The notes beneath the pieces are model-generated. The model saw nothing but the letters and a program-made list of their open reading frames with translations. It had not been told where the DNA came from and did not search any database. From an uncultured archaeon (GTDB lineage Archaea; Thermoplasmatota; Penumbrarchaeia; JASLWR01), in the NCBI GenBank assembly GCA_964430885.1, contig CAYSHM010000022.1, forward strand, positions 1 to 53,191: DNA of 53,191 nucleotides, given 5' to 3'. Below, piece by piece: positions 29,901 through 53,191 of the stretch. Position 1 is the stretch's first letter; every line of letters starts with the position of its first letter. Made by a program: the position numbers and the translations under genes.

Positions 29901-30410
29901 CTTTATGGAGGTGTATTCTCCCACGTCCCAGCCTGGATCGGCAACTTCAGTCACCCACTGCACTCCGTCGTGATATGCGTATTTAAGGTTCCCCGTTGTC
30001 GCACCAGTGGGATCATAGTAACTGATATGCGGTCGATCCATCATATCCAGATCTATCGAGCAGTAGAGTCCTGCACCATTTTCCACAACATTCCTTACCC
30101 ATTGTTCACCATCGAAATAGGTGTACTTGAGATTTGTATTTGTGTGGTCGTAATATGCTATGTGTGGTCTGTTCTGAGAGTCAACGTCCAATGAACAGTA
30201 TTCACCTTGATCGCCTAGATTATCCACGGTCATATTGAACCAGCCGTCACCTGCTCTGGTGCGCATATCTGAGAAGGATATCCTTCCCTTTTGCCCTATG
30301 CTTTTTGATTCTAAGGTTATATTGAAGTCCATTCCGTAAATTAATGCCATAACGCTTCCTGAAATCAATAGAATTATCATTACAAAAGATAGATGTTTTC
30401 TGTTAATCAT
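26904..30410 (-). CDS. type I membrane surface protein: 7-repeat beta-propeller, Ig-like modules, three PKD domains, TM helix, acidic Pro-rich tail
   Basis: Signal sequence from MINRKHLS, PKD motifs (DASGSTDN..ITNYTWSF...PG.Y..TL.V.D), a TM helix followed by KKK, and a tail ending DDLPPPPM. Confidence 0.9.
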   Translation of the reverse strand: MINRKHLSFVMIILLISGSVMALIYGMDFNITLESKSIGQKGRISFSDMRTRAGDGWFNMTVDNLGDQGEYCSLDVDSQNRPHIAYYDHTNTNLKYTYFDGEQWVRNVVENGAGLYCSIDLDMMDRPHISYYDPTGATTGNLKYAYHDGVQWVTEVADPGWDVGEYTSIKINETGKPHISYHDGDNLTLKYVYYNGAAWVNTTIDSDAAVGFDTSLELNDSGYPAIAYFDNDNGDLKYAYWDGAAWHKEAVDSDDEVGWGASLELNSTEHPRISYFDETNGEIKYAFYNMTQWEMETVKILGEAGRTTSLSLDILDMPHITYQNGTSGDLEYAFNAGGGEWQFTIVDSGESEGKYNSLALGSDHLPQIAYYKQSGLNDLMYAAVDNTQPVINNDQSDDTATTGDLFWFRLNASDNFLLDTLMVNWTHGENGGNETLQFFNDLWSRGISAKHSLSPLNYTFYITDLAGHLVTSNQVSIPVTDNDEPTVGQDYTPKIFFAGDNVTFKINCRDNIQLNNVYVRYVHGGDQYNESMAIDSGNWTHSYNVGNILGDISYSFYISDTSGNHITTSIDHVVQSDMDAPIFVEEASVNEPQTGQEFQLIVKITDDSNITSVKANYTFFGNNHTSADMVFLADDLWGVLIDVPINTTQLLYHIWAQDALGNILDTSISNGNFQIDVLDIVRPSAIVINSTGPVEKVLNFTVTQAIWLDASGSTDNLGITNYTWSFYYDGGMVKIYGPIFNFTFNIPGIYGLTLNVTDAEDNLDGFFINLNITSPVAEMPTAEAGADITLNQGDTSFMDASGAAIDEDFSYKWTFMYNDLEMSLIGTEVNFTFDIPGIYLVTLNISDGTGRFITDNLTITVLDTAAPEANAGTNFTVEQYKNATFDGFFSSDNVGIVNYTWSFNYGNTTITLFGVTAKYIFSTPGNYTVTLIVKDGAGLTSQDDVLVTVIEAQIGEDDDDDTPGDTGKDDEGGLSTGLLIVIIIVVVLVIVVIVFILMKKKGGDKGEESLKESDELIGESRGTSDGKNPPEEDEQTTGIEDEISGQEEEQYPAHEDSQLYDGDVQNSDIERNKSGTAPLDQEIPSDMTAPLESIPQGPAAPEAPPGMAEEQPMGEPPIPMSDPAMMPPGEIPPDSPPAEVPMSPEPMAPGAPEIPVPLDEDDLPPPPM
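29265..30224 (-). repeat. seven ~47-aa repeats, probable beta-propeller blades
   Basis: Consensus G.Y.SL.LD....PHISYYD....LKYA...G..W....V. Confidence 0.85.
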
Positions 30411-30664
30411 ACAATCCCTCCGAGAGATGAATTGGTCAATTCGTTTTGCACTATTTAATAATTCCGACAATGTTACCAATTGTCCAATACCTTATGGTAA
30501 GGGGAAATTATCGAAAAATTCAATATCCTTTGAAGTATTTGATGATTAATAATTTTCATGAGATGCAGTTCATTTTTTATTAACGAACGATATTGTTTTA
30601 TACTGGTAATCCATTTTGATTGACAAATCCATACATAATTACAATCTTAATGGATGGTGCTTTC

Positions 30665-31474
30665 ATGCCGATAATAAACATTTTTTCCAGAACCCATGTG
30701 GGAATGCACAGGGAGAACAATGAGGATTCCACAGCTACACTATCTATCAAGACCTCCGATGAGAGGGGCGAGATAAAATATCATGTTCTCATATTGGCTG
30801 ATGGCATGGGGGGTTACGAAAGAGGTGAGGCCGCCAGCCAATTGGCATGCCGAGAACTAGGAATGTTCGCAGTATCAGAGGTGTCGGATATTCTATTATC
30901 CCATAAGGATGATAAAACCAGATTTGAAAATTTCAGGGATAGATGTACCTGTATTGCATCAAAGATAAATACTGAGATCAGAGGGATGGTCTCAAACGAT
31001 GAATCCCGAATTGGTTCCACCTTTGTTATGGCAGTGATCTACAATGATATTTTCAATTTGGCCTATATGGGTGACAGTCGCGCCTACCTTATACAGAATG
31101 GTGGAATTGAGCAGATAACCAGAGACCATTCCTATGTGGAAGCCCTGCTTGAGAACAAGGCCATAACCCCAGAGGAGGCCCTGGATCATCCTATGAAGAA
31201 CGTCATAACCAAAGGATTGGGAATAAATGAAAAGGCCGAACCAGATTTTATCCACGGTAAATTCTCTACTGATTCAGCCCTTATCCTATGCAGTGACGGA
31301 GTAACGGATATGCTCATTGATGGGGAGATCAAGGAAATAGCCCATGAATCCAAACCCTTTGAGATGTGTGATAGAATAGTGGAAGCATCCAATGCCAAAG
31401 GAGGCAAGGATAACATATCCATAGTTATGGCCCGATTGATCTTTTCAAAGGTTAAAAAGAACAAACACCGTTAA
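30665..31474 (+). CDS. PP2C/PPM-family Ser/Thr protein phosphatase
   Basis: VG.HRENNEDS, LADGMGG, GDSRAY, TRDHS, LCSDG and GGKDNI. Confidence 0.95.
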   Translation: MPIINIFSRTHVGMHRENNEDSTATLSIKTSDERGEIKYHVLILADGMGGYERGEAASQLACRELGMFAVSEVSDILLSHKDDKTRFENFRDRCTCIASKINTEIRGMVSNDESRIGSTFVMAVIYNDIFNLAYMGDSRAYLIQNGGIEQITRDHSYVEALLENKAITPEEALDHPMKNVITKGLGINEKAEPDFIHGKFSTDSALILCSDGVTDMLIDGEIKEIAHESKPFEMCDRIVEASNAKGGKDNISIVMARLIFSKVKKNKHR

Positions 31475-31619
31475 ATTTATCAGGTTTTATTAATAATTTC
31501 AAATAAATCATAGCAAGATATAATGAAATGAACATTTAATTATGAAATATTGATTATTATTGGATTTCAGCGTCATCTCATTTAGATTTATAATTTCTAG
31601 TTAAATAAGGATTGGTACA

Positions 31620-32738
31620 ATGCCCAGGTTCAAAGCAAAGCTGGTTTTTGAAAGGGATGAGGAAGTTCCGAAACAGATCGAGATAGATGATTTCATATTG
31701 ATCAAGCGAACCGCTCAGGGTGTGGTTTGCCAGGACGAATGCGACGAATATCCTCTGGGAGTTTTTGATCTTTCAGTAAGCGGAGGGCCGGGCCACGTTA
31801 AGATATTCTGGGAGGGAGATGGTCTCTATTTACAGGATCTCGGGAGCAGGAACGGGACCTTCATCATACGGGGAGGGGTCACAAAACCATTGAAAGGTTG
31901 GATTAGAGACCCTGGAACAGGGAATGGAACTACCAGCCAAAAAGTCAGAGTAAAGAAGACAACTCGGATAAAGGTAGGTCGTTCTCTTTTCTCCTTGGAA
32001 ATTGAACCTATCCAGACAGTTATAGAACACAAGGGCAGCGGGGATATTCGTGTTACAGAAGTTGCAGGTGATTATCAGAATATTGAGATCCGCGACAGTA
32101 TCATACAGCGGTCCAACATAGGGACTGTGAGCCATGGTATTGATGAAAAAGAGTTCAGAAAAGCTGTTAAATGGCTAGATCAGCGTTCTGAGGACCGGGC
32201 AGCCCTCCTGTCGAAAGCACAGGAGGAAATGGCAGGAATGACCGCCGAGCTTTATAACCGCGTGGTTAGTGGTTTGGGGGCTCTTCTTAAGGAGTTCCCG
32301 CTTCCAGCCAGCATGGAGAAGAAAAGGGCAGAGATGCACCTTACTTACAACTGTACTGAATGTAGGACGGAAATTGGTAAAATAATTGATCGGAAATGGA
32401 AGAAATGGCTGATGTTGGGAGTAACAGGGGGTCTTGTGGGTTTGGGTATTGCAACTGTGAGTGTTACCAGTATTACAAAAGCACCAGGGTCGGATATTGG
32501 CCTTAAAGCCATGGGACGCTTGTTCCAGGATTTCACAGGTAAAACATTGGATCAGATTCCCTCTGAAAAATTCTTGCTAACTGATAATGAAAGGAATAAT
32601 CTTGTCATGGAACTAAGAAATGCAGGTATCATTGATAAGTTGAATTACTGCCCGGTTTGTGCAAGATGGGTTTGTAGCGATTGTTTTGAATATCAGGAGA
32701 GGATGTGTATATTGGATAGCCAGAAGAAAGGATGGTGA
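31620..32738 (+). CDS. FHA-domain protein with coiled coil, hydrophobic helix and Cys-rich Zn-binding C-terminus
   Basis: FHA motifs VS....H and LQDLGSRNGTF, then CTEC, a hydrophobic segment and CPVCARWVCSDC...C. Confidence 0.8.
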   Translation: MPRFKAKLVFERDEEVPKQIEIDDFILIKRTAQGVVCQDECDEYPLGVFDLSVSGGPGHVKIFWEGDGLYLQDLGSRNGTFIIRGGVTKPLKGWIRDPGTGNGTTSQKVRVKKTTRIKVGRSLFSLEIEPIQTVIEHKGSGDIRVTEVAGDYQNIEIRDSIIQRSNIGTVSHGIDEKEFRKAVKWLDQRSEDRAALLSKAQEEMAGMTAELYNRVVSGLGALLKEFPLPASMEKKRAEMHLTYNCTECRTEIGKIIDRKWKKWLMLGVTGGLVGLGIATVSVTSITKAPGSDIGLKAMGRLFQDFTGKTLDQIPSEKFLLTDNERNNLVMELRNAGIIDKLNYCPVCARWVCSDCFEYQERMCILDSQKKGW

Positions 32739-33509: not shown

Positions 33510-36470
33510 TCACCTGAACTCACCAAGATATACTTTCTCCCATCGAGCTGAACTGTTGCTCTCCAGAGCATTTACTCCAAATTTGTTCATAACCCAGTTC
33601 TGAGCGAATAAAAATGCTTCCCTAACTGAAACATGATCATTTCCTTCAATATCCGAGAAGCCGTATTTTTTATCCGCTATATCAAATTTTATTAGGTCCA
33701 ATCCCTGTGAATCAGTAAAATTATAATGAAATCTTCCATTTGAGAGCTGTTGGCTGTTCACAGCTGTGTATGTCACTCTTGGGCAGGGATTATCCCCGTC
33801 GTCCAGATGAGGTATTGCGCTCCCAGAATGGCATGCATCTATCGAAATGATCAGGTCCGAACAGTTTATCTCATCAAGCCAGCTGTCAAGAGTTGAATAA
33901 TGAATATTTTTATCCCTGCACAGCATGATGTTGTTTCCACCATGAGTTCCAATACTGATATAAACTGTATCATTTATATCGGCGATTTCAGCAATCTCCA
34001 TTATGGAGTTCTCAAGGGCGTTTGAGGTGGCGTCGTGAAACTCGTACTTCCATATTGTTGATTCATTATAGGAATAATTTTTAGTCAGAAGACGATTCAT
34101 TTTTTGGGAATCCAACCATTCTGGATCATTGGGATTTCCCCAATTGAATAGAAGGGCGTACCGATTGTTCTCGACCAATGGATCTGAATTGGACGTTTTT
34201 ACTTCAAAACCATCAGTAAGATTGTCATTGTCAGAATCGGGATTCCAGGGATCGGTATTATTGATGAATTCATGAATATTTGAAAGTCCGTCATTATCGG
34301 GGTCCTCTAAGCTATCATCTATAAGGGGATCTAGATCATTATTTATTTCCCAATCATCAGTTAGCAGATCTCCATCAGTATCGCGGGTCTGTGGATTCAA
34401 ATCAAGAATATATTCCTCAATGTTTGTCAGGTTATCGCCATCCGAATCCATAGTTGCGTCACTGCTATCGGTTGGATCTAAATTTCTCCATATTTCCCAA
34501 CCGTCGGGAATTCCATCGAGATCCGTATCGTTATTGTTAGGATCTGTGTTATAAATAAACTCAAGTTCATTGCTGAACCTGCAGTATTTAGTGGTTCGGT
34601 TCCCTCTATCTGAGAAAACAATAAGGTTATACCCGTCCCCGTCGTTATCTTCATCAGGGTCATGTACACCGTTCCCGTTAGAATCCATCAAAATGGGGTT
34701 CAAATTCCAGCTTCCGTTAATCATTATTCTGTTCTCAAGTTCCCATCCATCATCCAATCTATCCCTATCAGTATCTGTTATCAATGGATCAGTACCGTTT
34801 TCGAACTCCTGAATATTATTGAGACGGTCGTTGTCATTATCAATAAATGAATCGTTTTCAAGAAGATTCAAATTAAATTTATACTCCCAGCCGTCAGGCA
34901 TCAAATCGCCGTCTGTATCACTGCTCAGGGGATTTGATGTCAATTCAAATTCCATCAGATTGGTCAAAGAATCATTATCCGGATCATTTCCGCCATTAGG
35001 GTAATTGGGATCTAGGGAGTAATCGAATTCCCATCCATCAGGTAGACCATCTCGGTCGGAGTCCTGGTGAAAAGGAGATGTATTGAAGGCAAACTCAACT
35101 ATATTCATCAAACCGTCGACATCAGGATCCTCCATGCTGTCATTTCTCAAAGGATCAGTTCCGATATTTACCTCCCATGAATCAGGAATAAGATCACAAT
35201 CCGTGTCAGGAGAGTTGGGGTCCGTTCCTAAAAGGTGTTCCTGTATATTGGCTATACCGTCCCCATCAACATCATAATAGGAATCATAAGGTTCATTGGG
35301 GTTCAATCCATTGATTATTTCCCATTTGTCATCCAATCCGTCAAAATCGGAATCCTCGAATCGGGGGTCAGTTGAATTAATACATTCTTCCAAGTTGTCC
35401 AGGCCGTCAAGGTCTAGATCCAAATGAGAATCCTCTGAATAAGGATCCAACCCAAACATGATCTCCCATCCATCAGACATCCCGTCGCCATCAGAATCCT
35501 CACGGTTAGGATCAAGGTTCAAGATGAACTCCTTCAGGTTATTTAATCCGTCGAGATCGCTATCTAATTCTGAGTTGTGCACCATGGCTCCAATATTAAA
35601 ATAAACCTCCCATCCATCAGATATTTTATCATCATCTGAATCATAATCATGCGGGTCAGTACCTAAATAGATCTCCTGCAGATTTGTGAAGGGTATATAT
35701 TGGTAATTTCTTCCGGCGGATATCAATATCATCCCATCCTGATCAAAATCCTCTTCCCCATCATAAACTCCGTCTCCATCGGTATCATTTTTGGTGGGGT
35801 CCAGATCCCAAAGAGATCCTGATAATGCCCTGAAATCTATCTCCTGCTGATCGGTGATCCCATCTCCATCAGTATCGGGATCAAAGGGATTACAATCGAA
35901 GTATAGCTCACGTCTATTTACCATCCCATCGGCATCGTTATCATCCCATGAGTCATTCATCAAGGGATCCAGCCCCTTGGAAACTTCCCATAGGTCCGGC
36001 AATCGGTCCCTATCCGAATCCCTGGTATTTGGGTTAGTTCCCTCTATGAATTCCTGAACATTGCACAAACCGTCATTGTCTAGGTCTGAAATATTGTCCG
36101 AAGGGTCGCAGGGGTGAAGACTATTGTTTACCTCCCATTGGTCGGGCATTCCGTCCAGATCGGTATCTGAAAGATTGGGATCAGTTCCAAGGGAATATTC
36201 CAGAGCATTGCTCAATGTATCGTTGTCATTGTCCATGGTGGCATCATTTGAATTGTTGGAGTCAAGTCCATTTTCATTTTCCCACAAGTCCGGCAATCCG
36301 TCCTTGTCCCTATCATCGGTGAGAACAATAATAATTACATCTTCATCCCTGGTTTCCACATTTGATCTGTGGGTCTTTCTGTTGATCCCTGTGGCTATTA
36401 AAGAGAATATTATGATAAATAATAATATGAAAATAGTAATACGGCGGCAGGTATTTTTCCCTATTTTCAT
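33510..36470 (-). CDS. membrane-anchored/secreted protein with TSP3-like Ca2+-binding repeats and a C-terminal clan-CD (caspase/legumain-like) cysteine peptidase domain
   Basis: N-terminal hydrophobic helix and DxDxDGxxDxWE repeats. The C-terminus has [14 protein letters not shown] and [10 protein letters not shown] (His-Gly / Ala-Cys dyad motifs). Confidence 0.85.
34165..36314 (-). repeat. 13 full plus one partial ~48-49-aa acidic repeats
   Basis: Unit D.D.DG..D.WE...GL.P...D...D.D.DGL.N..E....T.P counted in the translation. Confidence 0.9.
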
Positions 36471-41809: not shown

Positions 41810-43072
41810 TTATTCCAGTGACGGAACCAAAGCCGTGGCCATTGGCATTATCAGAACCTTTGAGTCTGGCCCTTCCTCCTGTATACTCAAATCGAGGGCA
41901 TCTTGTACCGAATCCAAAGGCCTCATGTGGATCTTCTTTACCACGGAAGGTTCTAGGGTTGTGACTAGCATAATTTTGAATCTTTTTATCGCTTCAATAA
42001 ACTTTGCAGTCTTCTGGTAACCGAGTTTGTAGTTATTGGAAATGTGGTTTTCAATACTATCCAGATCATTTGATGAAGATAGAAGATCATAGAAAACAGG
42101 ATCGCCGATACCCTTTCTTGTCTTGCTCACGAAAATCATTGTCCCACCATCTTTCAGTGCCCGTTTGGAGTTCTCAAGGGCTTTCTGCGACTGATAGAGA
42201 CTGATATCCAAGGGATATTCCGCCACTGCCACCATTATGTCTGATTTCTGGGAAATCATTATTGAATTAAGCCTTTTGCATTCGGGAACTGCCGATAAAA
42301 ATGAGTTCTCCAGGCTTCCGCCAAAAGCTTTCCGGATCATTCCATCTCCCCCCAATACAAGCTGTATGCTGTAAATCCTTTTATTTTCGATCAAACCGCA
42401 GGCTTCCATCATATCCAAGTGAACCGGATTTGAATCCAGCTTCAGCAGTTTTGCTTCGGGATCCAATGAAAAGGAATGATTGTTCTCAATTGTATTGAAA
42501 AAGGACAGTCCTGGCAGGAATGCTTTTCGGCCACCAGTATATCCCGCAAAGTAATGAGGTTCAACAGAACCTATAACTAGAACATTATTGTAATTATCCA
42601 GGATTTTATCTAAGAAAACCTCGGTGCCCCTAGAAGTTCTGCCGTAATATCTATGTTGGTCCTTTTCCCTGGCTCGATGAATATGCAGCAGATCCTTAAA
42701 AGTATCATAGCTGTTTCCCAACAGGGATTGGATCTCATTTTCATTTGGAGGTGAATGGCTTCCAGTTGCAATTGATACACAAACTTTGTTAAAGTCGGAG
42801 ACCACCCACATCAATTGTTCCAGTATAACGAAAGAAGGGGTGGGACGGTTAGCATCATTCATTATGATCAAAAGGTCCCCATTTTCACTGTTTTTAATAT
42901 CGGCCAGGAATTTATCCAGTGAAAAATACTTATCTTCTTCAATGAGGGAATCCATAATTTTATAATCTGACTGATCTGCGAGTTTATCAACCGATGGCGG
43001 TAACAAAATTCCTTGCAGGTTATTCTCCGGAATTATTATATCATCGTGACCTGATCCTAGTTGAACTTTCAT
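41810..43072 (-). CDS. larA: nickel-pincer-dependent lactate racemase (LarA)-family protein
   Basis: ND..RPTP, IATGSH, EPHYFAGYTGGRK..LPG and YQSQKAL. SD GAGGTG upstream of ATG 43072. Substrate cannot be determined. Confidence 0.88.
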   Translation of the reverse strand: MKVQLGSGHDDIIIPENNLQGILLPPSVDKLADQSDYKIMDSLIEEDKYFSLDKFLADIKNSENGDLLIIMNDANRPTPSFVILEQLMWVVSDFNKVCVSIATGSHSPPNENEIQSLLGNSYDTFKDLLHIHRAREKDQHRYYGRTSRGTEVFLDKILDNYNNVLVIGSVEPHYFAGYTGGRKAFLPGLSFFNTIENNHSFSLDPEAKLLKLDSNPVHLDMMEACGLIENKRIYSIQLVLGGDGMIRKAFGGSLENSFLSAVPECKRLNSIMISQKSDIMVAVAEYPLDISLYQSQKALENSKRALKDGGTMIFVSKTRKGIGDPVFYDLLSSSNDLDSIENHISNNYKLGYQKTAKFIEAIKRFKIMLVTTLEPSVVKKIHMRPLDSVQDALDLSIQEEGPDSKVLIMPMATALVPSLE

Positions 43073-43776
43073 AACATCCACCTCAAATTATGTATATCGG
43101 GCCGTTAACTAAAGACGATAAATGCTCTTGGTCAGATATTCATCATTAATCTGATCTGAATTTAATCCTTCTATATGGAGTATTATTGATTGAAGTTATA
43201 CTGCACCAATATAATATCAAATATACCCGTATTATTATCCCGGATATTTTTTTTTATCAAGGATATGTAAATCTCAAGGAAAAATCTAACCTAATAAACC
43301 CTTATTAAAACCCCTAAAAATACTGCTTTATGAGAATAACTGTGGAACCTGCTTTCAATATCATCAAAAGTATTATTAATAATTTGATAATTGGGCGATA
43401 AAGTTCTATTGTTGAAAATATCATGAAAACAATTAGGATAACCATTAGATTACATACAAAATATAAAAAGGATGTAGAAAGGAGTATACCTTCCAATATC
43501 CCTGCACATGAACATATTGTTCATTAATAAATTTAAATCATCTATGGATAAAAATAACAGGAACACCATAACCTAAATAATGGGACTGAATTGAAATTCA
43601 TTCTAATTCACCTTAGAATCAATATTACTAGTAACTAGATATAATGAACCCGAACATGTTCTGATTCATTTATGAATCATCCTATGAAAAATCATCTGAC
43701 CCGATAAGAATTGCAATTATCCCTAGAGATCGCTCATTATCAGATCGGGATAATAAAAACAAAACGAGGAATCATA

Positions 43777-46700
43777 ATGGCGGAAGAAAATATAAGGCCA
43801 CAAGAATTGCTTAGGGGATCATCCGATCAAAGTGGCAAAAAAAATTCTCGAGTAATGAACGCACTAAAGGACCTGCAGTCGGTTATGGATGGGAAGATCC
43901 ATACACACATACGGGATATAAGTGAAGAACGGCTTAGATACGCCAACTCTACACTTAATAAACTTGAGCAGGATACAGGACAGGAGTTTCAAGATATCCG
44001 TTTCTATTTGGAAAAGGCCCAGGAAGCCCTCGATTCCAATGATTATACCAATATGGAGAAAATGCTTCAGGCTTTCAGCACAGCTGCTGAAAAACATAAG
44101 AAAGAACTCCTTACTGGCAGGTTGAGAACGGAGATAGATGAAGCTCGCTCTGACCTGGAGGTGCTCGATGAAGCGGGTGTGAATGTTTCATCGGGAATGG
44201 ATTATCTTGAAGATGCCCAGAGAAAGGTGGCTCTTGAAGATTATGTGAAAGCAGAGCAGATAATTCAGGATCTTTTTGATTTTATCAAACGGTGCAAGGA
44301 AAGGGATATCAAAGATATTGTCCAGGCCAGATTCGTTCGTGTTAAAAGAGAATATGAACGACTAATGAAATCCGATATAGATATCAGCGCTGAGAGAGGG
44401 ATATTCAAAGAAGCAGTACTGGCCATCAGAGAAATGGATTATCTGGGAGGAAGCATTCTCCTGAAGGACGTCAGTGAAAGGCTTAAACAGGCAGAGAAGG
44501 GATATATTGTTGAGAAGGGCCGCCAACTTCTAAACGAATATAGATCTACCTTTTCCTACCTAAAGGAAACTGATCATTTTGAAGAGGATTATTTATCGAG
44601 GATAGAAGCGGTCCTTGACCGGTTGAATGGGTCCCTGGCAGCCGGAAATGTTGATAGGATTCTTCCTGAAATGGAGATCGCCGAACGTGTTATGGAAGAG
44701 GTTGTCGCAAAGAAAGATAAGGTTGTGAAGGCCAAAAATCTCAGGAAAGATATCCGAGCATTGATTACAAGTGCGGAACAGCAGGACATTGATGTCAGAG
44801 AAGAAAGATGGACATTGGATGAGACCGACAGAATGTACGAACTTGATCTAGTGGATAAAATGCTTGTTAGACTTGAGGAGGCAAAAGGTTCCCTGGCTAA
44901 AAAGATAAGTATGAAGAAAATGATGGAAGCCCAGCATCATTTGGATCTGTTGAAGAGCGCTTTGGAATCCGAACCGCAGGCCATAAGGGATCACCCTGCC
45001 ATTAGAGCTCAATTAGAAGAAGCTGAGACCGCATTTGCTAATGAGAAATATTTAACTGTCATTGAAACATGCAAGGACATTTCCTCTCTCGTGGACCAAG
45101 TTCAATCGGAACACAAGATCAAGAGCATTGAGGCAAGGTTCCCGAAAGTAAAGGACAGGATCAATAGGAACAAGGAACTGAAGATCAAGACATCCAAGGC
45201 AGAAGCTCTTTATTACCAGGCGAAGCTATATTTTGAGAAAAAAGATCTGGATTCCACCCTGGAATGTTTGAGAATGTCCGAAGAGAACCTGAAAGAGTCC
45301 AGAATTAAGTGGGAAAGAAGGTCTCTTGAAGCTCCGTTTGCGGAAGTGAACGATCTTCTTGTTAAGGCTAGGAGCATGGGGGGAACGGTGAAGGATATCG
45401 TGAAATTACTGAAGAGTGTCAATGAAAATATCGAGAATCAGGAATTCGAAACTGCCCACAAGGAACTTGCCGGGGCTAAGGATGCGTTGAAGGTGATAAT
45501 CGAGAAGAGGTGGGACCAGCTTATCAAAAGGAAGATAAGTGAGATCAGAAAGAAGATGGAGGAAGGCAGTGAATTGGGTATCAGTATCAAGAATGAAAAG
45601 GAAGGAATACCCACCGTAAGAAAGTATCTTCATGATAATAATTATGAAAAGGCCTACGATTCCATAAAGGTTATCGAAACCTCACTGGATGGCAATATTC
45701 ACGGCTTCAAGAAGAAGATAAATGGCCCCAAAGTGGAGAAGGCAAGGGAAGACCTGGAGGCCTTTGAGAAAAAGTGGGGTAAGAAAATAGCTGCTCTTGA
45801 CCAATACGTTACAATGGCAATAGCCTGCCTTGAAGAGGGTGCCCATGATGTGCTTCTAAATCATTTGACCAATTTCTATGATATCAAGGAAAAATACGAA
45901 TCATCCCTGCAGCTGAATGCTTTCAGAAAACGGCTGGATGAGATTTCTGAAGAATTAGATAATTATGAAAACCTTGGCTTGGATGTTGCCAAAGGAAGAT
46001 CCCTGATAGGCGATGCTACCATTCACATGTCCAAGGAGGATGTTGTCTCATCTTCCGCCGTAATGGAGGAGCTTGAGAACTACACTGAAAAACTCAAAAC
46101 CGAGGAAGCCAAGGCCATAGCTAAAAGGAAATTCTCGGATGTGAAGAACCAGTTACTGGAAATGAAAAATGAAGGAATTCCCCTTGACAACGGGAAGAAA
46201 TGGATGAAGAGAGCTATTAGGGCAGTGGATGAGGAGGATTATATCAAGGTTATTTACTATGTGAACAGTGCGGATGATGCTCTAAAAGAGGATAGGAGAA
46301 TGGCTGATAGGCGCTTAACCATTCAAATACTCAAGGAGTTAACTGGATTGATATCTGAATCTGAAGAACTGGGAATCAATATCTCGGTTATCAAGGGTAT
46401 GATGAAGGAATCGGGCATGAATCTTGAGCTTGACCGCAACAAAAAAGCCCATATTATTGCAACTGACGCTCGCAATATACTTCAGGAGAAGATGAAGGAC
46501 CGGTACATGATGAAGGTCCAAAGGAGCATATCAGAGACTGAACGTATCATGGAAAGAGCCCAGGAAATGGGTGTGGATACCGGTGAGGAGAACAAGGCCC
46601 TTATTGTGGCCCGAAAACTCAGTGATAAACAGCAGTTCGGCTCTGCTGTCAGAGAGCTTGATAGTGTAGAAATATCATTAAAACGAAAGATCACCTATCA

Positions 46701-49700
46701 GGAAAAGGAATTGAACAGCAGAAAAATATCGGCCGCTCTGGATAATTATTTAAAATTACAGGAAATGACCGGCCGTCCCCTGAAGGACCTGAATAGTTTC
46801 TTGGATCGAGCCCGAAATGCCCTGGAAAGATATGACTATGACACCATGGACCACCACCTTCTGATGTACAAGGAACAGAGCGACCACTACAGGAAGAGAT
46901 TTTTAAGTGCTAAATACAAGAATCAGATAGATCAGTTCAGGACCAGGGCGGGAGCACTTGAATTCATCGGACTGGAAGCTGAAGGTGTGGCCGAAATGGT
47001 GGATTCGGCGGAAGGTTTCCTTTCCAGTGACAGATATGATGACCTGACCGAGATTTTAGATATCATTCAATCGTCCCTTGATCAAGCCGGGGAAAAAGAT
47101 GCCAAAGAGCTTGCAGTTGCTCTGCTTTCCGAAGCAGGGATGAAATTGAAAAAACTATCGGGTTCTGAGTACTCCATATCCTCAGAGTTGAAAAGTGTAG
47201 AAGAAGCAAAATCGTTATTCGATTCGGGTGAATTTGTTGATTCCTGCTCATCCCTTGTTAATGCTTTAAAGGATATCGATCTCATGATGGAACGTTACAA
47301 CAGGGCAAAAGTTATGAAGAGCATAAAGAAGGCCACTGTTTTCCTTGAGGGTCATTTGGAACACTCCTACTTCACTGATGATAAACAGCTTCAGTTCAAG
47401 GATATATTGGGTGAATTGAGGATATTGTATGAAGAGGATAGCATTCCCGAAGCTCTTGAAAAGACCGTAATCCTGAAGGAAAAGATAGATGAGTATCAAA
47501 ATGGTATCCAGTTACTTGATGACTTCAATAAACTGAATGATGAATGGGTGGAATTGGTAAATTTTGCTCACAAGGTGAACATCAAAATTGCCGCATTGGA
47601 GAAATCTTATCACCGAGCTCAATCCCTGGCTTCCGACGAACGTTTGGATGCCGCCATAGACATAGCGGGAAGAGTTATTAATAAACTACAGGATGAGATC
47701 AAAGACAAGCGGGCCAAGTACGCCCATTCCCTGCTAAAGAAGATCAGAGAAGACCTGGATAAGTACGGAAGATTACTGGATGACACCACGGAAATAAAGA
47801 AGGGTCTGAAAAAGGGCCTTGCACTTCTGGAAGAGAAAAAGCATGAAGATGCCATTCAGATAATGGATCCCCTTCATGATGAGATAGTGGAGAAAAGGAA
47901 TCGTTATCTAAAGGATAAGCTGAATGATATTCTCACTGAGAATGAGAGGATCATGATAGAGAATGAGGATATGGGGATTGACACCTCTGATATGGAAGTG
48001 GCATTTTATAAGGCCAAGTATAATTTCGAGAAGGGTAAATATGTTCTGGCCAAGGATTTCTGTGTGGAAGCTAAGAAAGTAGGTATGGAACAGAGAGAAC
48101 TGTATCACAAGGATAGGGCTGGGAGCCTTCTGGGTGAGGTCAGTTCTAAATACAAGAGAAATATGAAATTAAAGATAAGCGATGCCAAATTGAAGGATCA
48201 ATTGGATAAGGCCGCACAGCAGCTTGATTCCAAGGAATTCGCCAAATCCGTGGAGATTATCCAGAAGATTGAATCCATACTTGTGGAGGACCATAATCAA
48301 TATCTAAGGAACAAGATGGAGAAGGAACTTTCAGGTGTGAAGGACCTGATAACCGATCTTCAAAGCCACCATCATTATCCAGACGAGGAACTGAAACCCA
48401 TAGAGAGCTTATATTTGGAGATGAAGGGCCTTCTCGCAGGGGGTCAATTCATTGAATTGGAAAATAGAATAAAAGATTTCAATGGACGCATACCTTCAAT
48501 AAAGGAGTCCCTGGAATACTACGATCATTTGGATAGACTCGGTGAGGAGATCAAGAACACCGAACACAATTTCAGAGAAACAGGAATCGACCTTGTTAAA
48601 GAGAGAAGATTATTGAAGAAAGCAAAGCTTCTTGTGAAGGACCGAGACTTCAGGGAAGTAAAGGAACTGCTCAATTCTATTGACCAATCTATCAAGGATA
48701 AGGTAGAAGTAGCCAATATGAAAGAAGCCCAGTATATGCTCAGGAGAGCATCCGATATTATAGAAGAGAATCATGATCTGATAAAGGATGTTCTGCCTGT
48801 TGAGAAATATTTTGCCAAGGCCAGCGATCTAATAGACAAGAAGGAATACCGAAAAGCCACAGCTTCTCTCAGGACGTTGATGGACCAGATTATCAAGATA
48901 AAGGATGAATCAAGAAAAAAGAAGCTCAGGTCCTCTATTGAAACCGTCAAGGGAATAATAAAGGCCTTGGAGGATTTCGGTGAAAAGGTCACCTATTTCA
49001 ACGATCTTCTGGATCAGGCAGAGGCTGCTATGGACCGAAAGAATTATGATCTTTCCCAGAGGTTCATAACTAAGGCAAAGGACGCAGCCGTCAAGACCCG
49101 GGATGACCATTACAGATCGGAAACATATTCACTGCTTCCTGAAATACAGAAGATAGTTGGTGAAATATCCAGCTTCGGTTTTGACACTTCAGACATTGAG
49201 GGTGAGATACAATCAATCCATTCACTTCTGAAGGAATCTAGTTATTTCAAGGCACGTGTAAAGGCCCTGAAGACGCTGCAGAGATTGAAGGTTGTTAAGA
49301 AGGATCAGGCCAAGAACAAATTGGATCAGTCAACAAGTGAATTGAGTGTGAAACTGGATACCGCGGTGGAGTTCGGAATTGATATAGAGGATTTCAGGGC
49401 GGATTTTGATGAGAAGAACCGCCTGTTGGATGAGGAGAATTACGTAGAGGCACTGGACCTTATGGAAAGGGTGAAGGTCCAACTGGACAGCAATATAATC
49501 CAGGCAGTGCAAGAAAAGGCAGATAAGGAACTTTTGTCCTTTATGGAGTTATTGGATAATGCAGAATATTTGGGAATTGATATAATTGATCAAAGGGCTC
49601 TAATAACTAAGTTTGAGGAGAAGATTTCTCTAGGCAAATCGGAAGAAGTAATCAGGGCGCTTTATGAACAATCTCTAACAATAAGGAACAGCATACTGAA

Positions 49701-52700
49701 CAATGATATTGTACTTCTAAATTCCGAACTTGACGAATTGGAAGAAGAGACCCACCGGGTTTTATCCGATATACGCGAGCTTGTTCAGAATTTGAAGATA
49801 GATATTGAATACGGCAATATTGAAAAAGCCGAGAAAGAATTATCTGACGTACAGAAATTATTTGAAAAAAGGAACATATCTGTTAAACTTGAGTATTACA
49901 CCAACGCTATTTCCCAGTCCGAGTCCCGCCTTGTCAGGCTGAAGGGTTTATCTGTTGAATGCTCATTATTCGAGGATACCCTGAACCTGTCCAAAGAGCA
50001 TCTAAAACGATATGAATTCTCAGAACTCAAGGCACTATTGGCTGAATTGGGTGAATTGGCAGAGGAATGTGAGGGTGTCAGGGCCAAGGATAGGGCCAAT
50101 GAGATCTACAGCAATATTAGGCAATGGTCAGAACAAATTGGTTTGGATGGATTGAGTGAAGGGCTGGCGGATGACATTCTCAAGGTGGAAGAACTGATAA
50201 CTTCCAAGAGATATATCAGGGCTTGTGAGGTGGGGGAGGATCTTTTAGGTTCATTGAAAGGCCAATATGATGTTTTCCTTAGAGAACAGGTGAATCTCAA
50301 AATGAGTCAGGCAGAGGGATTCCTGGTATCCATTTCTGACAACCAGAATTTCCATACAGATTTTATATCCGAATTCAGAAAAACCATAAAGGAAACAAAG
50401 GATTTCATAAATGAAAATGAGCTCGAAAAGGCAAGTGAACATTTGATAATTGTTGATGAACGATTATCTGAAACCCAGAATCGTTTGGACATATACGCCG
50501 AGAACGAGAAATACCTGGAACTGATAGCGGTTCTCATGGATTCAGCGGAAGAATTGGAAATCGGGCTGGAGGAAGAACTCACTACAATGGAAGGAATAAA
50601 GGTTCAGAAGGAGTCAGGGGAGTTCCATTTATCCTTAGGATTGTTGGAAGGGATAAAGGAAAGTCTGGAGAATAAGATTGACCTCAAGAAGATGAAAAAT
50701 GCCGGAGGACTGTTTCAACAGATGCTGTCTTTGATTGAATCCAGCGGGGATATAGTGGACAATATCGAGGGTATTGAGGAATGGATATCCCAGGCCAAGG
50801 ATCATCTGGAGAATAAACGGTTTTCCGATTTCTCGGATGTCAGCAATAGAATAATCACAACATTGAACGCAGCCAAGGAAAAGGCCAGTTACGGAGAGAT
50901 CAGTTCATTGATTGAATCAACAATGTCTCAGATGAAAGAAGCGGAAGCTTTGGGTATTTCAATTGAAAATGCTGAGGACGTATTGAATAAGGCCATCGAT
51001 TATCTTGAGAAAATGGAATATGACACAGCTAGAAAATATGTTCTGCGTACCAAGGAAATAATCTATCAGAACCGGTCAGAATATTATGAAAAGGAAGCTC
51101 AAAAGTCTATTGAAGACCTCAAAGGTCTTGTGGAAGAGATGGATTCTGCCGGCGCCGATACAACCAAATTCCAGGTAATACTGAAGGATACCATTAAGAA
51201 ATTCAACAATAAACTATTCGAGGAGTCGCTGGTTCATTCCAAAGAAGGTTTACGTCAATCCGGAGATCATCTGAAGAATCATTATTTTGAAAAGGTTACT
51301 GCTCTTCTTAAAGAACTCCAGATCGCCTTCCAAAGTGCTGTGGAGATAGGAATCGATGTGAGTCAATCTCAGGAATTGCAAAAGGACAGCAATTCTTATC
51401 TGGAAGAAGAAAATTTCGCCAAAGCTGAAGAGACCGCCAAAAAAGCTATTGAAATTCTTAGGTCCGGCATGGATGATAAACTGAAAAGGGAAACTCTCAA
51501 GAGATTGGATAGGATCACTGAGTTATTGGACAAAGCCAACGAATTGGGAATACTGCTTGATAAGGAGATGAATACTGCATCATCAGCTAGGGAAGAGCTT
51601 GATGCTGGTAGACCATCCGTGGCATTGGAAATCTCCGAGGGCTTGATAAAGATTCTTGAAGAAAGGATATTGGAGGGTGTTAAATGGGATTTCAGAAGGC
51701 GTATTGACCAAGGTAGAAGAGAAGTAGACAGTATCGACTTGGAAATTTTGGAGAAGGATGAAATTGAGAAATTGTCAGTTCTGAATTCCCTTCTTGATAC
51801 CTTGGAAGGCCATTTTACCAGAGAGGATTTCAAACTGCTTGATGAGAGTTTTGTTGAATTCCAATCCATTTTGGATGATTTCAGCAGGGCTGAAGTTGTG
51901 AGAAGATATTCACGGTCAATTGTGGAACTAAAGGAATCTGCCGAACAGTATCAGAAACTTGGGATCCAAACGGATGAAAGTCTTTCCCTGATAGAGAAAG
52001 CAAGGGAATGTCTTTATGATGACAAACTCAAGGAGACATCGGAATTAATTGAAGAAGTAAATGCGTTTATGGAAAGCTGCTCCGTAAAGGGAGAGGCCGA
52101 GGTCAGTAAGATTATCTCTTCCATGAAGAAGGATATTGAAGATGCCATTTCCCTTAATGTAGATGTACCCGATATATCGGGGATAGAAAAATTAGTTCAG
52201 GTTTTGCTCGAGGAAAGGCGGATCATCGAAGCGCTGTCAACGGCTAGAAATGAGTGGAATAGGGTAATTGAGATACTAAGGGAGAAAGGCCGCGGCATAA
52301 TCCAGAAAGAAGTTAAGAAGCTCAACGTCCTATTGGAAGAGAGCATGAGTTTAGGAATTGATGTCCAGAAGGTGATGGGTGTTCTTTCTAAAATGGAAGG
52401 CATCCGTAGAAAGAAGAACATCAAGGAATCCCTTGAAATGGTGAAGAACGCCAGAGAGGACCTGGAATCCAGAATCGAAGTAGCAAAGGATAGGAAGGAA
52501 GCTGAATTAAGATCACGTTTAAATGAGTATAGACATGAACTAGTCAAATGGGCCGAGGAAGCCGATGCAGATGTGTCAGCTCTTCTCACCATGCTGGGTG
52601 AGATAGAGGGTATACTTGACAGCAAATTCATATTTGAAGCAGAATCGAGAATTGAGAGCTATAATGCTGCCTATGAGGACTTCAAGAAGACCATTGATAA

Positions 52701-53191
52701 AGAAGACCGGAGGAAAATCAAGTACGAATTGGCGGAGGAAAAGAGGAGAGTTGAAGAGGAATTCACTAAGACCAGAGAGCAGATCGAGAGAAAGATATTG
52801 CCTGTGGAAAGGGAGGAAGTGTCAAGTGAAGACGAATTAGATCTGGAATCTGCTTCCAAGGCTGAAATTGACAATGTTGAAAAGCTTCTTGAACAGATCA
52901 AGGAGCAGGGGGAGGATATCCTTCATTTTGAAACGGTTCTGTTCGAGGCTAAATTTTCCTTTGATAACGAGAAGTACCAGGAAGCACTTGATTACTGTGA
53001 TACCATCAAAGAGATGATTTCGGATTATATTGATGTTGAGGAAGAAGAAGAGGTGGAAGAGGAAATCGAAGAAGAGGTGGAAGAGGAAATCGAAGAAGAG
53101 GTTGAAGAGGAAGTCGAAGAAGAGGTTGAAGAGGACGTCGAAGAAGAGATGGAAGAGGAAGTCGAAGAAGAGATGGAAGAGGAAGTCGAAG
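43777..53191 (+). CDS. giant (at least 3138 aa, 3'-truncated) cytoplasmic alpha-helical repeat protein, absent from the ORF track
   Basis: ATG 43777 with SD GAGGA at 43766-43770. The frame reads MAEENIRPQELL... and stays open to the window end. It is E/K/L/I-rich with no signal peptide and no TM segment noticed. Confidence 0.93.
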   Translation, partial: MAEENIRPQELLRGSSDQSGKKNSRVMNALKDLQSVMDGKIHTHIRDISEERLRYANSTLNKLEQDTGQEFQDIRFYLEKAQEALDSNDYTNMEKMLQAFSTAAEKHKKELLTGRLRTEIDEARSDLEVLDEAGVNVSSGMDYLEDAQRKVALEDYVKAEQIIQDLFDFIKRCKERDIKDIVQARFVRVKREYERLMKSDIDISAERGIFKEAVLAIREMDYLGGSILLKDVSERLKQAEKGYIVEKGRQLLNEYRSTFSYLKETDHFEEDYLSRIEAVLDRLNGSLAAGNVDRILPEMEIAERVMEEVVAKKDKVVKAKNLRKDIRALITSAEQQDIDVREERWTLDETDRMYELDLVDKMLVRLEEAKGSLAKKISMKKMMEAQHHLDLLKSALESEPQAIRDHPAIRAQLEEAETAFANEKYLTVIETCKDISSLVDQVQSEHKIKSIEARFPKVKDRINRNKELKIKTSKAEALYYQAKLYFEKKDLDSTLECLRMSEENLKESRIKWERRSLEAPFAEVNDLLVKARSMGGTVKDIVKLLKSVNENIENQEFETAHKELAGAKDALKVIIEKRWDQLIKRKISEIRKKMEEGSELGISIKNEKEGIPTVRKYLHDNNYEKAYDSIKVIETSLDGNIHGFKKKINGPKVEKAREDLEAFEKKWGKKIAALDQYVTMAIACLEEGAHDVLLNHLTNFYDIKEKYESSLQLNAFRKRLDEISEELDNYENLGLDVAKGRSLIGDATIHMSKEDVVSSSAVMEELENYTEKLKTEEAKAIAKRKFSDVKNQLLEMKNEGIPLDNGKKWMKRAIRAVDEEDYIKVIYYVNSADDALKEDRRMADRRLTIQILKELTGLISESEELGINISVIKGMMKESGMNLELDRNKKAHIIATDARNILQEKMKDRYMMKVQRSISETERIMERAQEMGVDTGEENKALIVARKLSDKQQFGSAVRELDSVEISLKRKITYQEKELNSRKISAALDNYLKLQEMTGRPLKDLNSFLDRARNALERYDYDTMDHHLLMYKEQSDHYRKRFLSAKYKNQIDQFRTRAGALEFIGLEAEGVAEMVDSAEGFLSSDRYDDLTEILDIIQSSLDQAGEKDAKELAVALLSEAGMKLKKLSGSEYSISSELKSVEEAKSLFDSGEFVDSCSSLVNALKDIDLMMERYNRAKVMKSIKKATVFLEGHLEHSYFTDDKQLQFKDILGELRILYEEDSIPEALEKTVILKEKIDEYQNGIQLLDDFNKLNDEWVELVNFAHKVNIKIAALEKSYHRAQSLASDERLDAAIDIAGRVINKLQDEIKDKRAKYAHSLLKKIREDLDKYGRLLDDTTEIKKGLKKGLALLEEKKHEDAIQIMDPLHDEIVEKRNRYLKDKLNDILTENERIMIENEDMGIDTSDMEVAFYKAKYNFEKGKYVLAKDFCVEAKKVGMEQRELYHKDRAGSLLGEVSSKYKRNMKLKISDAKLKDQLDKAAQQLDSKEFAKSVEIIQKIESILVEDHNQYLRNKMEKELSGVKDLITDLQSHHHYPDEELKPIESLYLEMKGLLAGGQFIELENRIKDFNGRIPSIKESLEYYDHLDRLGEEIKNTEHNFRETGIDLVKERRLLKKAKLLVKDRDFREVKELLNSIDQSIKDKVEVANMKEAQYMLRRASDIIEENHDLIKDVLPVEKYFAKASDLIDKKEYRKATASLRTLMDQIIKIKDESRKKKLRSSIETVKGIIKALEDFGEKVTYFNDLLDQAEAAMDRKNYDLSQRFITKAKDAAVKTRDDHYRSETYSLLPEIQKIVGEISSFGFDTSDIEGEIQSIHSLLKESSYFKARVKALKTLQRLKVVKKDQAKNKLDQSTSELSVKLDTAVEFGIDIEDFRADFDEKNRLLDEENYVEALDLMERVKVQLDSNIIQAVQEKADKELLSFMELLDNAEYLGIDIIDQRALITKFEEKISLGKSEEVIRALYEQSLTIRNSILNNDIVLLNSELDELEEETHRVLSDIRELVQNLKIDIEYGNIEKAEKELSDVQKLFEKRNISVKLEYYTNAISQSESRLVRLKGLSVECSLFEDTLNLSKEHLKRYEFSELKALLAELGELAEECEGVRAKDRANEIYSNIRQWSEQIGLDGLSEGLADDILKVEELITSKRYIRACEVGEDLLGSLKGQYDVFLREQVNLKMSQAEGFLVSISDNQNFHTDFISEFRKTIKETKDFINENELEKASEHLIIVDERLSETQNRLDIYAENEKYLELIAVLMDSAEELEIGLEEELTTMEGIKVQKESGEFHLSLGLLEGIKESLENKIDLKKMKNAGGLFQQMLSLIESSGDIVDNIEGIEEWISQAKDHLENKRFSDFSDVSNRIITTLNAAKEKASYGEISSLIESTMSQMKEAEALGISIENAEDVLNKAIDYLEKMEYDTARKYVLRTKEIIYQNRSEYYEKEAQKSIEDLKGLVEEMDSAGADTTKFQVILKDTIKKFNNKLFEESLVHSKEGLRQSGDHLKNHYFEKVTALLKELQIAFQSAVEIGIDVSQSQELQKDSNSYLEEENFAKAEETAKKAIEILRSGMDDKLKRETLKRLDRITELLDKANELGILLDKEMNTASSAREELDAGRPSVALEISEGLIKILEERILEGVKWDFRRRIDQGRREVDSIDLEILEKDEIEKLSVLNSLLDTLEGHFTREDFKLLDESFVEFQSILDDFSRAEVVRRYSRSIVELKESAEQYQKLGIQTDESLSLIEKARECLYDDKLKETSELIEEVNAFMESCSVKGEAEVSKIISSMKKDIEDAISLNVDVPDISGIEKLVQVLLEERRIIEALSTARNEWNRVIEILREKGRGIIQKEVKKLNVLLEESMSLGIDVQKVMGVLSKMEGIRRKKNIKESLEMVKNAREDLESRIEVAKDRKEAELRSRLNEYRHELVKWAEEADADVSALLTMLGEIEGILDSKFIFEAESRIESYNAAYEDFKKTIDKEDRRKIKYELAEEKRRVEEEFTKTREQIERKILPVEREEVSSEDELDLESASKAEIDNVEKLLEQIKEQGEDILHFETVLFEAKFSFDNEKYQEALDYCDTIKEMISDYIDVEEEEEVEEEIEEEVEEEIEEEVEEEVEEEVEEDVEEEMEEEVEEEMEEEVE
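43920..53022 (+). repeat. about 45 tandem ~66-aa helical units
   Basis: Turn codons of the [LM]G[IV]D-type motif fall at 43978, 44176, 44374, 44572, 44785, 44983, 45181, 45379, 45577 and so on to 52354, 52564 and 52909, mostly exactly 198 nt apart. Confidence 0.88.
53044..53191 (+). repeat. 24-nt tandem repeat (six copies plus partial) encoding (EEE[VIM])n
   Basis: Unit GAAGAAGAG(GTG/GTT/ATG)GAAGAGGA(A/C)(A/G)TC running to the window end. Confidence 0.95.

Follow-up and report, generated by a model that had tools for sequence, protein, structure and literature searches.

What kind of protein is encoded by an open reading frame (ORF) that occupies the last 9.4 kb of an archaeal contig and to which no family can be assigned? 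The question is raised by the window analysed here, which is the entire contig C22 (53,191 nucleotides) of the genome of an uncultured archaeon of the phylum Thermoplasmatota (44 contigs, 3.13 Mb, ~43% GC). The frame, from ATG 43777 onward, holds 3138 codons without a stop and corresponds to the open frame of more than 3100 residues described in an earlier note on this DNA, the "end" to which it runs being that of the contig. It is a genuine gene (43777–53190), truncated at its 3' side. Searches of Pfam, NCBIfam and the PDB sequences with its product assigned no family and revealed no catalytic domain.

We consider the product to be a giant, acidic and probably cytoplasmic structural protein, that is, a spacer or scaffold resembling spectrin and EzrA and anchored through modules at its ends, and we give this reading a probability of roughly 0.5. 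The lack of export signals, a fast-evolving family that keeps its period, the small end modules, the absence of a catalytic domain and the predicted fold together suggest a passive cytoplasmic spacer or scaffold. In such a protein, the repeats would set distance and stiffness, and the small end modules would attach the rod to its partners.

The repeat unit and its predicted fold

The autocorrelation of the protein sequence, calculated with BLOSUM62 and compared with 30 shuffles, has a z of 12.3 at a lag of 66 residues, with harmonics at lags of 132 (z 7.0), 199 (z 6.6) and 265 (z 6.8), and it also contains a heptad signal at lag 7 (z 7.1). At the DNA level, the identity at a lag of 198 nt is 0.326, compared to 0.285 ± 0.008 at all remaining in-frame lags from 150 to 249 (z 5.1). 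The 198-nt array is not detected by Tandem Repeats Finder, which indicates that the units are old and diverged. A self-iterated hidden Markov model (HMM) of the unit locates 45 copies, 42 of them with an independent E-value (i-E) of at most 0.001; the statistics of such a search are circular, while the spacing is not. The ~45 tandem units of 66 residues and the 198-nt period that the note had proposed are thus recovered by calculation. Units scoring at least 10 bits span 2639 of the 3138 residues, in a register that is almost continuous from residue 52 to ~2979 and is followed by one more unit at 3029–3094; the array has a few gaps of 133–137 residues, with one degenerate unit within each. The seven turn strings quoted in the note are all present near the 66-residue grid, at phases of 0, 0, 5/15, 6, 6, 17 and 15 residues, and these shifts off the strict grid fit with a few small indels.

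The anatomy of the unit was read from an alignment of 27 copies, which are 9–26% identical to its first row. The first turn is G17-[IV]18-D19-[IVT]20 and the second is [DE]35..[NDE]38-[YF]39..A42. From column 39, via column 66, to column 16 of the next unit, the hydrophobic a/d-type pattern is unbroken, and the alignment has no conserved Gly or Pro over this distance. The short stretch at columns 23–34 has its own core at positions 27, 30 and 34. The protein as a whole contains 14% Glu, 11% Leu and 10% Lys, with 20 Pro and 12 Cys, and has a net charge of −177, which argues against a coating of DNA or membrane along the length of the rod. Neither a signal peptide nor a transmembrane (TM) segment is found in it, the highest 19-residue Kyte–Doolittle mean being 1.12, and a Walker A motif was looked for and not found; the note had likewise reported no signal peptide and no N-terminal Walker A.

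The alignment on which the fold was modelled comprised 20 five-unit blocks, in register and without overlap, of which the giant protein supplied 7 and its paralogs in this genome 13. For residues 2311–2640, AlphaFold2 (AF2) gives a mean predicted local distance difference test (pLDDT) score of 95.1 and a predicted template modelling (pTM) score of 0.75. The five-unit model contains four repetitions of a 43-residue helix, a 5-residue loop, a 15-residue helix and a 3-residue loop, with the long helices at model residues 39–81, 105–147, 171–213 and 237–279 and the short ones at 87–101, 153–167, 219–233 and 285–299. The modelled block can be read as three-helix bundles with shared continuous helices. 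Each of the ~45 diverged 66-residue units would thus consist of one 15-residue and one 43-residue helix, and a small antiparallel three-helix bundle would be formed by the last part of a long helix, the short helix and the first part of the long helix that follows. Because such a bundle is composed of parts of two long helices, neighbouring bundles would share a continuous helix. The order of helices and turns, with one helix continuous between units, that the note had deduced from the letters is therefore also that of the model, which predicts bundles of this kind instead of the TPR solenoid or plain coiled coil that the note had named as outcomes that would count against it. From helix geometry, the rise per unit would be at most (43−15) × 1.5 = 42 Å, and the contour length of the rod would be on the order of 0.1–0.2 μm for 45 units.

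The five-unit model was compared with 48,161 chains by VIA-align. The best single-unit superpositions are with 4fzo_A (Z 10.7, root-mean-square deviation (rmsd) 2.8 over 76 residues), 2oo2_A (AF1782, DUF357; Z 10.7, rmsd 2.4 over 71), 4fm3_A (PA2901, DUF4398; Z 10.5, rmsd 1.9 over 88) and 9rgv_A, a designed three-helix bundle (Z 9.2, rmsd 1.4 over 72). Each of the matched ranges of the model (56–127, 123–194, 193–282 and 254–329) runs from the last part of a long helix through a short helix into the beginning of the next long one. DUF357, DUF4398 and the designed bundles are single domains and not arrays, their Z values of 9.2–10.7 fall in the range common for helical proteins, and no sequence relationship to them is shown; DUF4398 is weakly matched in one relative, P0003 (E 0.0036).

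Among the multi-unit matches, EzrA leads, with 4uy3_A at Z 10.3 (131 aligned residues, rmsd 9.2) and 4uxv_A at Z 9.6 (311 aligned, rmsd 21). Further matches are BB0323 (Z 10.2), the helical domain of the adhesin BibA (Z 8.3, 192 aligned) and a five-module Protein A repeat (Z 6.0). In the ESM Atlas, clusters of Thermoplasmatota "hypothetical protein" come first, and the first named family is again EzrA, at rank 17 with a score of 0.79, which we take as a lead only.

EzrA is a spectrin-like regulator of bacterial cytokinesis. According to passages of the paper on EzrA (PMC4243239), this cytoplasmic protein is composed of serial antiparallel triple-helical bundles linked by continuous helices, with a TM anchor at the N-terminus, five repeats of ~100 residues and a four-helix bundle at the C-terminus, and its arrays bend by 33–53° per junction. 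Interconnected arrays of triple-helical bundles are stated there to be known only from spectrins (4–20 repeats) and EzrA (5), the latter being described as the only bacterial protein so built, again with repeats of ~100 residues (PMC4243239).

The giant protein would share with EzrA (PF06160) the serial bundles and continuous helices, and EzrA is its best multi-unit structural match; it differs in having ~45 units of 66 residues, no TM segment, no Pfam EzrA match and an archaeal host, and the multi-unit alignments have large rmsd values (9.2 and 21 Å). The resemblance to the spectrin superfamily (alpha-actinin, dystrophin, nesprin) would lie in the last helix of a repeat continuing as the first helix of the next, a feature seen here in the AF2 model only and hence a prediction, and in the degenerate, heptad-based sequence. 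The spectrin repeat is longer (~100–106 vs 66 residues), PF00435 is not matched at E ≤ 1, the structural score is weak, and the giant protein carries neither an actin-binding nor any other spectrin accessory domain. The unit has about two-thirds the length of a spectrin or EzrA repeat, without detectable sequence homology to either. The bundles of spectrin are left-handed and those of EzrA right-handed.

FIVAR/GA modules, Protein A and BibA are likewise built from small three-helix modules of ~50–70 residues in long arrays, and these proteins are secreted and anchored to the cell wall. The giant protein resembles them in its small modules and long array, but it has no signal peptide or TM segment and no Pfam FIVAR or GA match, and its relatives end in zinc ribbons. 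The proposal of a spectrin- or FIVAR/GA-type rod made in the note is thus supported as a predicted architecture, since single units align to three-helix bundles and several units to EzrA, and it is not supported as homology, given the missing Pfam matches and the low score of spectrin itself.

Paralogs, relatives and end modules

The unit HMM finds 10 ORFs in this genome at E ≤ 2.5e-10, with 19,063 codons in all, or ~1.8% of the 3.13 Mb. The paralogs hold the 66-residue spacing too, and tandem pairs are common, with two members on contig C18 and two or three on C17. By motif, five paralogs carry a Pro/Lys/Glu-rich linker at their end and, behind it, a Cys4 zinc ribbon or RING-like finger; in one of the five, a zinc ribbon is found at the start as well. 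Zn_Ribbon_1 passes its cut-off in a C17 paralog; in the other paralogs the assignment is sub-threshold or by motif only. The C18 members (C18:10469–29073) are tandem giants of 3282 and 2745 codons, each ending in a zinc ribbon. On C17 (C17:38914–52296), one paralog is interrupted by an assembly gap (a stretch of N), which leaves frames of 2129 and 872 codons, and a separate 1512-codon member with the Zn_Ribbon_1 C-terminus follows. The C4 member (C4:69097–73714; 956 residues) has zinc ribbons at both ends and lies directly downstream of NfeD and SPFH/Band 7 genes on the same strand, with ftsZ ~5 kb upstream, a neighbourhood that offers a possible lead to a link with membrane microdomains or division. 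In the C5 paralog, CARDB is matched below threshold.

Two of these loci have further neighbours. About 2 kb upstream of the C18 paralogs, at C18:30909–33290, a UQ_con (E2-like) gene and a double-JAB gene are parts of a ubiquitin-like system. Adjoining the C5 paralog is an ORF of at least 2712 residues (C5:108864–117000, + strand) with ketoacyl synthase, acyltransferase, phosphopantetheine-binding and ketoreductase domains, a megasynthase similar to type I polyketide or fatty-acid synthases and unusual for an archaeal genome. The same contig encodes a 1227-residue protein with a Lamin Tail Domain and two phospholipase D-like domains (C5:89026–92706, − strand).

Outside this genome, a word-indexed protein search yielded only 2 matches within 1738–5530 aa. 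The closest relative from the word search, and the one strong match, is P0002 (4713 aa, E 1e-138, 20% identity), whose N-terminus carries an FHA match just below threshold (19.9 vs 20.7 bits). The exhaustive profile search with the 27-unit alignment retrieves 1045 cluster representatives at E ≤ 0.001, of which 363 remain at ≤ 1e-10 and 117 at ≤ 1e-30. Its two longest members, of 7686 and 7274 aa, contain 71 and 74 matched stretches, respectively. Among the best 150 of the 1045, 134 pass the periodicity criterion, 146 are net acidic, 11 have at least 3000 residues and 43 have between 1400 and 1550. Family-wide, the unit spacing clusters at 66, 62, 64 and 63 residues. The giant protein has the tandem units, the G-[IV]-D turn and the [DE]x[YF]xxA turn that characterize this unnamed family of 62–66-residue repeats. 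One match, P0136, was rejected as a false positive, being an insect allergen repeat.

Features of the family were counted in 151 proteins (P0002 and P0004–P0153, with P0001 and P0003 left out). A TM-like segment occurs in five of them, one being a false positive, and is absent from the other 146. A terminal CxxC..CxxC motif is present in 63 of the 151 (50 C-terminal, 14 N-terminal). Pfam searches of 18 relatives gave mostly nothing, the exceptions being CARDB and Prok-RING_1 at the C-terminus of members of ~1500 residues and TPR at the end of P0016. The modules that would attach the rods of paralogs and relatives to their partners thus comprise zinc ribbons, RING-like fingers, a coiled coil, CARDB and, rarely, a C-terminal TM helix.

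Where source names were available (three of the ten clusters examined), they read "hypothetical protein" and come from Thermoplasmatota or Thermoplasmata archaea. The cluster of P0004 includes two fragments with the name RpoP and two more that are attributed to a Planctomycetota metagenome-assembled genome. The family is therefore currently annotated as "hypothetical" or, via its zinc ribbon, mislabelled as RpoP. Both the link to Thermoplasmatota that the note had offered and its suggestion of a widespread, uncharacterized family are in accordance with these searches and with the absence of the family from Pfam and NCBIfam. No description of such a family was found in the library of literature that was searched.

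All 31 sampled genomes of the window's class, this one included, match at E ≤ 1e-5. In a sample of the phylum, at E ≤ 1e-7 per unit, 34 of 301 genomes match, namely 24 of 27 in the window's class and 10 of 274 elsewhere, the low counts elsewhere having been obtained with a profile tuned to the subfamily of the window's protein. The hits are concentrated in this class of Thermoplasmatota. Small genomes (1.4–1.8 Mb) from other classes of the phylum contain a single member each, in an open frame of ~1440–1610 residues (for example, G131:C1:79539, G213:C21:21401, G288:C1:413942 and G297:C11:56279). This agrees with the 43 top matches at 1400–1550 residues, some of which have CARDB and Prok-RING at the C-terminus, and the members of this size look like a conserved subfamily of fixed length.

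The best collinear relatives are found in a sister genus and have 3840 (G001, which is P0009) and 3835 residues (G003), with 28–29% identity over the first 1000. Over 2955 columns (residues 8–2900 of the giant protein and 78–2974 of P0009) the identity with P0009 is 24%. The latter extends for ~630 residues past the point that matches the end of the window, and it closes with a short heptad coiled coil behind a Pro-rich linker, without a zinc ribbon. Upstream synteny with the sister genus is absent, as PHP and inositol monophosphatase genes stand there in place of the LarA, TPR and transglutaminase genes found here, and orthology therefore rests on the collinear best matches only. Another long relative, P0005 (3904 aa), was rejected as an ortholog, being 21% identical and non-collinear from the N-terminus. 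In both sister genomes (G001:C86:786–4772 and G003:C35:42044–45868), the next gene downstream of the rod gene encodes another family member, of ~1300 residues, with a Prok-RING_1 finger near residue 1020–1080, and a gene for a Laminin_G_3 protein comes after it. The rod gene and the ~1300-residue member form a conserved tandem arrangement within the sister genus.

A proposed cytoplasmic scaffold and rival explanations

The low maximum hydropathy, the strongly negative net charge, the small number of relatives with TM-like segments and the terminal zinc ribbons and Prok-RING_1 fingers make it likely that the giant protein is cytoplasmic, since terminal modules such as Cys4 zinc ribbons and RING-like fingers are typical of cytoplasmic proteins. 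A structural and not an enzymatic role is suggested by the absence of a catalytic domain, by diverged units that have kept their period and by the mostly acidic character of the family. The protein would then probably serve as a scaffold or tether.

A number of results weigh against this reading. The tertiary fold is given by one AF2 model calculated on the repeat-block alignment made here, and a single-sequence AF2 prediction of the C-terminal 361 residues (2778–3138) reaches a pLDDT of 50.8 and a pTM of 0.24. It is of use for secondary structure only, where it agrees with a helical chain that is interrupted at the GxD sites and by a linker without helix (residues 231–245 of that low-confidence model). 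Foldseek finds nothing in the PDB at E ≤ 0.001, its best match being designed helical proteins at 0.11, with 3edv_A at 3.4. By VIA-align, spectrin 3kbt_A scores Z 6.1 with an rmsd of 10.0 over 158 residues, and since Z values below ~13 are common for helical repeats, the values obtained here, all ≤ 10.7, point to a fold class and not to kinship. Evidence for expression is thin, as transcription is hinted at by a single 199-nt metatranscriptome contig at 51065–51259. The C-terminal module of the giant protein lies beyond the contig end, no recurrent partner gene is found across four paralog loci, the locus of the giant gene and the sister genomes, and some relatives (P0013, P0024) contain CARDB, which is usually an extracellular domain. 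Finally, when compared with the PDB, the unit profile matches consensus TPR proteins at E 1.6e-9 and TPR2A of HOP at E 4e-4 to 4e-3.

The TPR matches fall in columns 24–61 of the unit. The TPR consensus aligns to columns 24–51, at 2.8–7.8 bits per copy; these columns hold the short helix, the [GDN][DE]Y..A turn and the first part of the long helix. The second turn, given as [GN]DY..A in the note, is thus present as a turn; the nuance missed there is that each unit holds, as far as sequence can tell, a TPR-like hairpin motif made of the short helix and its turn. The whole protein might then be a TPR-type superhelical scaffold in place of a three-helix-bundle rod, as is also hinted at by the only Pfam matches of the giant protein at E ≤ 1, TPR_6 (11.4 bits, cut-off 26.3) and ANAPC3 (13.6 bits, cut-off 27.2), the latter passing with 32.2 bits in P0005; it should be mentioned that the HMMER filters lose many matches above an E of about 0.1. 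The low E-values of the PDB matches, however, arise from the summing of 4–16 identical designed repeats, lone copies scoring poorly, and no Pfam TPR family is over its cut-off in the giant protein. The 66-residue period (vs 34 residues in TPR), the unbroken 43-residue helix without a conserved helix breaker and the superposition of single units on three-helix bundles at 1.4–2.8 Å argue against a TPR solenoid, and AF2 predicts two helices per 66 residues rather than four. We therefore regard a TPR superhelix as improbable. The heptad signal and the short heptad coiled coil at the end of P0009 could instead suit a filament-forming coiled coil that pairs with itself lengthwise, similar to intermediate filaments or crescentin. 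A regular GxD turn and a short helix with a conserved core in every 66 residues speak against it, as does the AF2 monomer, which folds back on itself with high confidence, and this explanation seems equally improbable. A homodimer prediction with two five-unit blocks scored 0.00 and, being without controls, has no bearing on self-association either way.

Two other explanations retain the three-helix bundles and change the location or the partner. The protein could be a surface fibre comparable to the giant tandem three-helix-bundle adhesins of Gram-positive bacteria, exported by an unrecognized route, in a genome with many surface proteins of the PKD, Ig-like and TSP3 kinds; the CARDB domains and the VIA matches to BibA, BB0323 and the Protein A repeat would fit. 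We find this unlikely, because the giant protein and 146 of the 151 family proteins are devoid of TM-like segments, the former also of a signal peptide, because the terminal fingers are modules of cytoplasmic type, and because P0024 has a Prok-RING behind its CARDB domain and no TM segment to separate the two. Alternatively, it could regulate or tether the FtsZ/CetZ cytoskeleton in the manner of EzrA, its ends binding tubulin-family filaments and the membrane. This would account for the rank of EzrA in the structural and ESM Atlas comparisons and for the C4 paralog, with its two zinc ribbons, near ftsZ and right after NfeD and SPFH. A precedent may be seen in CdpC of Haloferax, for which a recent report states that two zinc ribbons bind the membrane and FtsZ1, with remote multi-zinc-ribbon relatives in all Thermoplasmatota classes (10.64898/2026.07.16.738847). 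The absence of an EzrA match at E ≤ 1 in Pfam, the lack of an N-terminal TM anchor, the 45 units of 66 residues compared to the five of ~100 in EzrA and the distance of the window's gene from ftsZ all stand against such a role, and a single ftsZ-proximal neighbourhood is an anecdote, which makes it quite unlikely. As for an assembly artefact or a non-functional open frame, one might suspect it of a gene at a contig end whose 3' end falls within a tandem repeat. Logan contigs from two runs (X1 and X2), possibly the source samples and hence not independent, cover 43000–53073 with 0 differences; in a third sample of that study, the fragments that match the giant gene likewise show 0 differences. 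Together with 9.4 kb without a stop, the collinear relatives of 3835–3840 residues in the sister genomes and the 1045 family representatives, this renders the explanation scarcely credible, and the stop or misassembly that the note had envisaged as an objection is not seen in these contigs.

Returning to the anchored cytoplasmic spacer or scaffold, the prediction, if it holds, means that an archaeal phylum owns a whole family of bundle rods with a smaller repeat and 45 to more than 70 units. The known cytoskeletal or scaffold elements of archaea would be joined by a new class, which would offer a testable handle on the organization of the cytoplasm and membrane in largely uncultured archaea and could supply protein engineering with a modular rod from nature. 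Many archaeal cell biologists would be surprised by such a family and by its scale, although the fold is a single prediction. A still wider proposal, which we consider doubtful but worth stating, is that Thermoplasmatota built a spectrin-type cytoskeleton independently of eukaryotes and of EzrA. It would consist of cytoplasmic rods of 0.1–0.5 μm from several paralogs, made of miniature 66-residue three-helix repeats, perhaps derived from TPR hairpins, and tied by zinc-ribbon, RING-like or coiled-coil ends to the membrane, SPFH microdomains or the division machinery, for mechanical support or as a spatial ruler.

Gene boundaries and surroundings

The features of the gene are collected in Table 1. 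The frame is open already from 43711, and a Shine–Dalgarno-like GAGG at 43766–43769 stands 7 nt ahead of the ATG.

Table 1. Positions in the window of the giant gene and its parts
Feature	Position	Strand	Detail
Upstream intergenic region, long and A+T-rich, divergent from the LarA-like gene	43082..43776	+	GC 0.368 in the 42001–44000 bin
Giant ORF, 3138 codons, 3'-truncated by the contig end	43777..53190	+	0 stops in translation
N-terminal 51 residues outside the repeat register, hydrophilic, without signal peptide	43777..43929	+	
Continuous array of ~44 units of ~66 residues (residues 52–2979)	43930..52713	+	Unit HMM register
Five-unit block modelled with AlphaFold2 (residues 2311–2640)	50707..51696	+	Alternating 43-/15-residue helices (predicted)
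E/R/K-rich charged segment and short non-helical linker, interrupting the array (residues 2980–3028)	52714..52860	+	
Last recognizable unit (residues 3029–3094)	52861..53058	+	47.7 bits; E 7.3e-16
24-nt tandem DNA repeat, 6.2 copies, encoding an acidic (EEEV/I/M)n tail	53044..53191	+	95% matches

The assembly stops inside the 24-nt acidic repeat, and the C-terminus of the giant protein is therefore missing. The recovery of the 3' end from reads, which the note had recommended, did not succeed, since the long Logan contigs of X1 and X2 end at 53073, inside the same repeat. Loose ends near 53088–53170 derive from short Logan contigs, possibly of other organisms, and an apparent joint 48305→50386 is spurious, one of its sides having just 21 letters. 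The acidic repeat or a continuation of the gene was not found on any other contig end of this genome; the 5'-open edge ORFs at the starts of C4, C43 and C38, with acidic or zinc-ribbon character, were considered as the missing end and rejected as unlike a continuation.

The genome contains ribosomal protein S8e and is archaeal. McrA was not found in it, at a completeness of 91.6%, and a guess at a methanogen or anaerobic methanotrophic (ANME) lifestyle was dropped for the absence of McrA.

The region upstream of the giant gene encodes, on the other strand, a LarA-like protein, a TPR protein, a transglutaminase-like protein, an NTPase and an acetyl-CoA synthetase; farther upstream are genes for a C13 peptidase with TSP3 repeats, a rubrerythrin, an FHA protein, a PP2C and a PKD protein. 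The PP2C phosphatase and FHA-domain genes adjoin each other at 30620–32738, ~11 kb upstream of the giant gene. Two large, probable surface proteins are encoded on the − strand of this region. The one at 33510–36470 (986 residues) combines a C13 (legumain-type) peptidase domain with bacterial TSP3 repeats, and the one at 26904–30479 (1191 residues) contains PKD domains.

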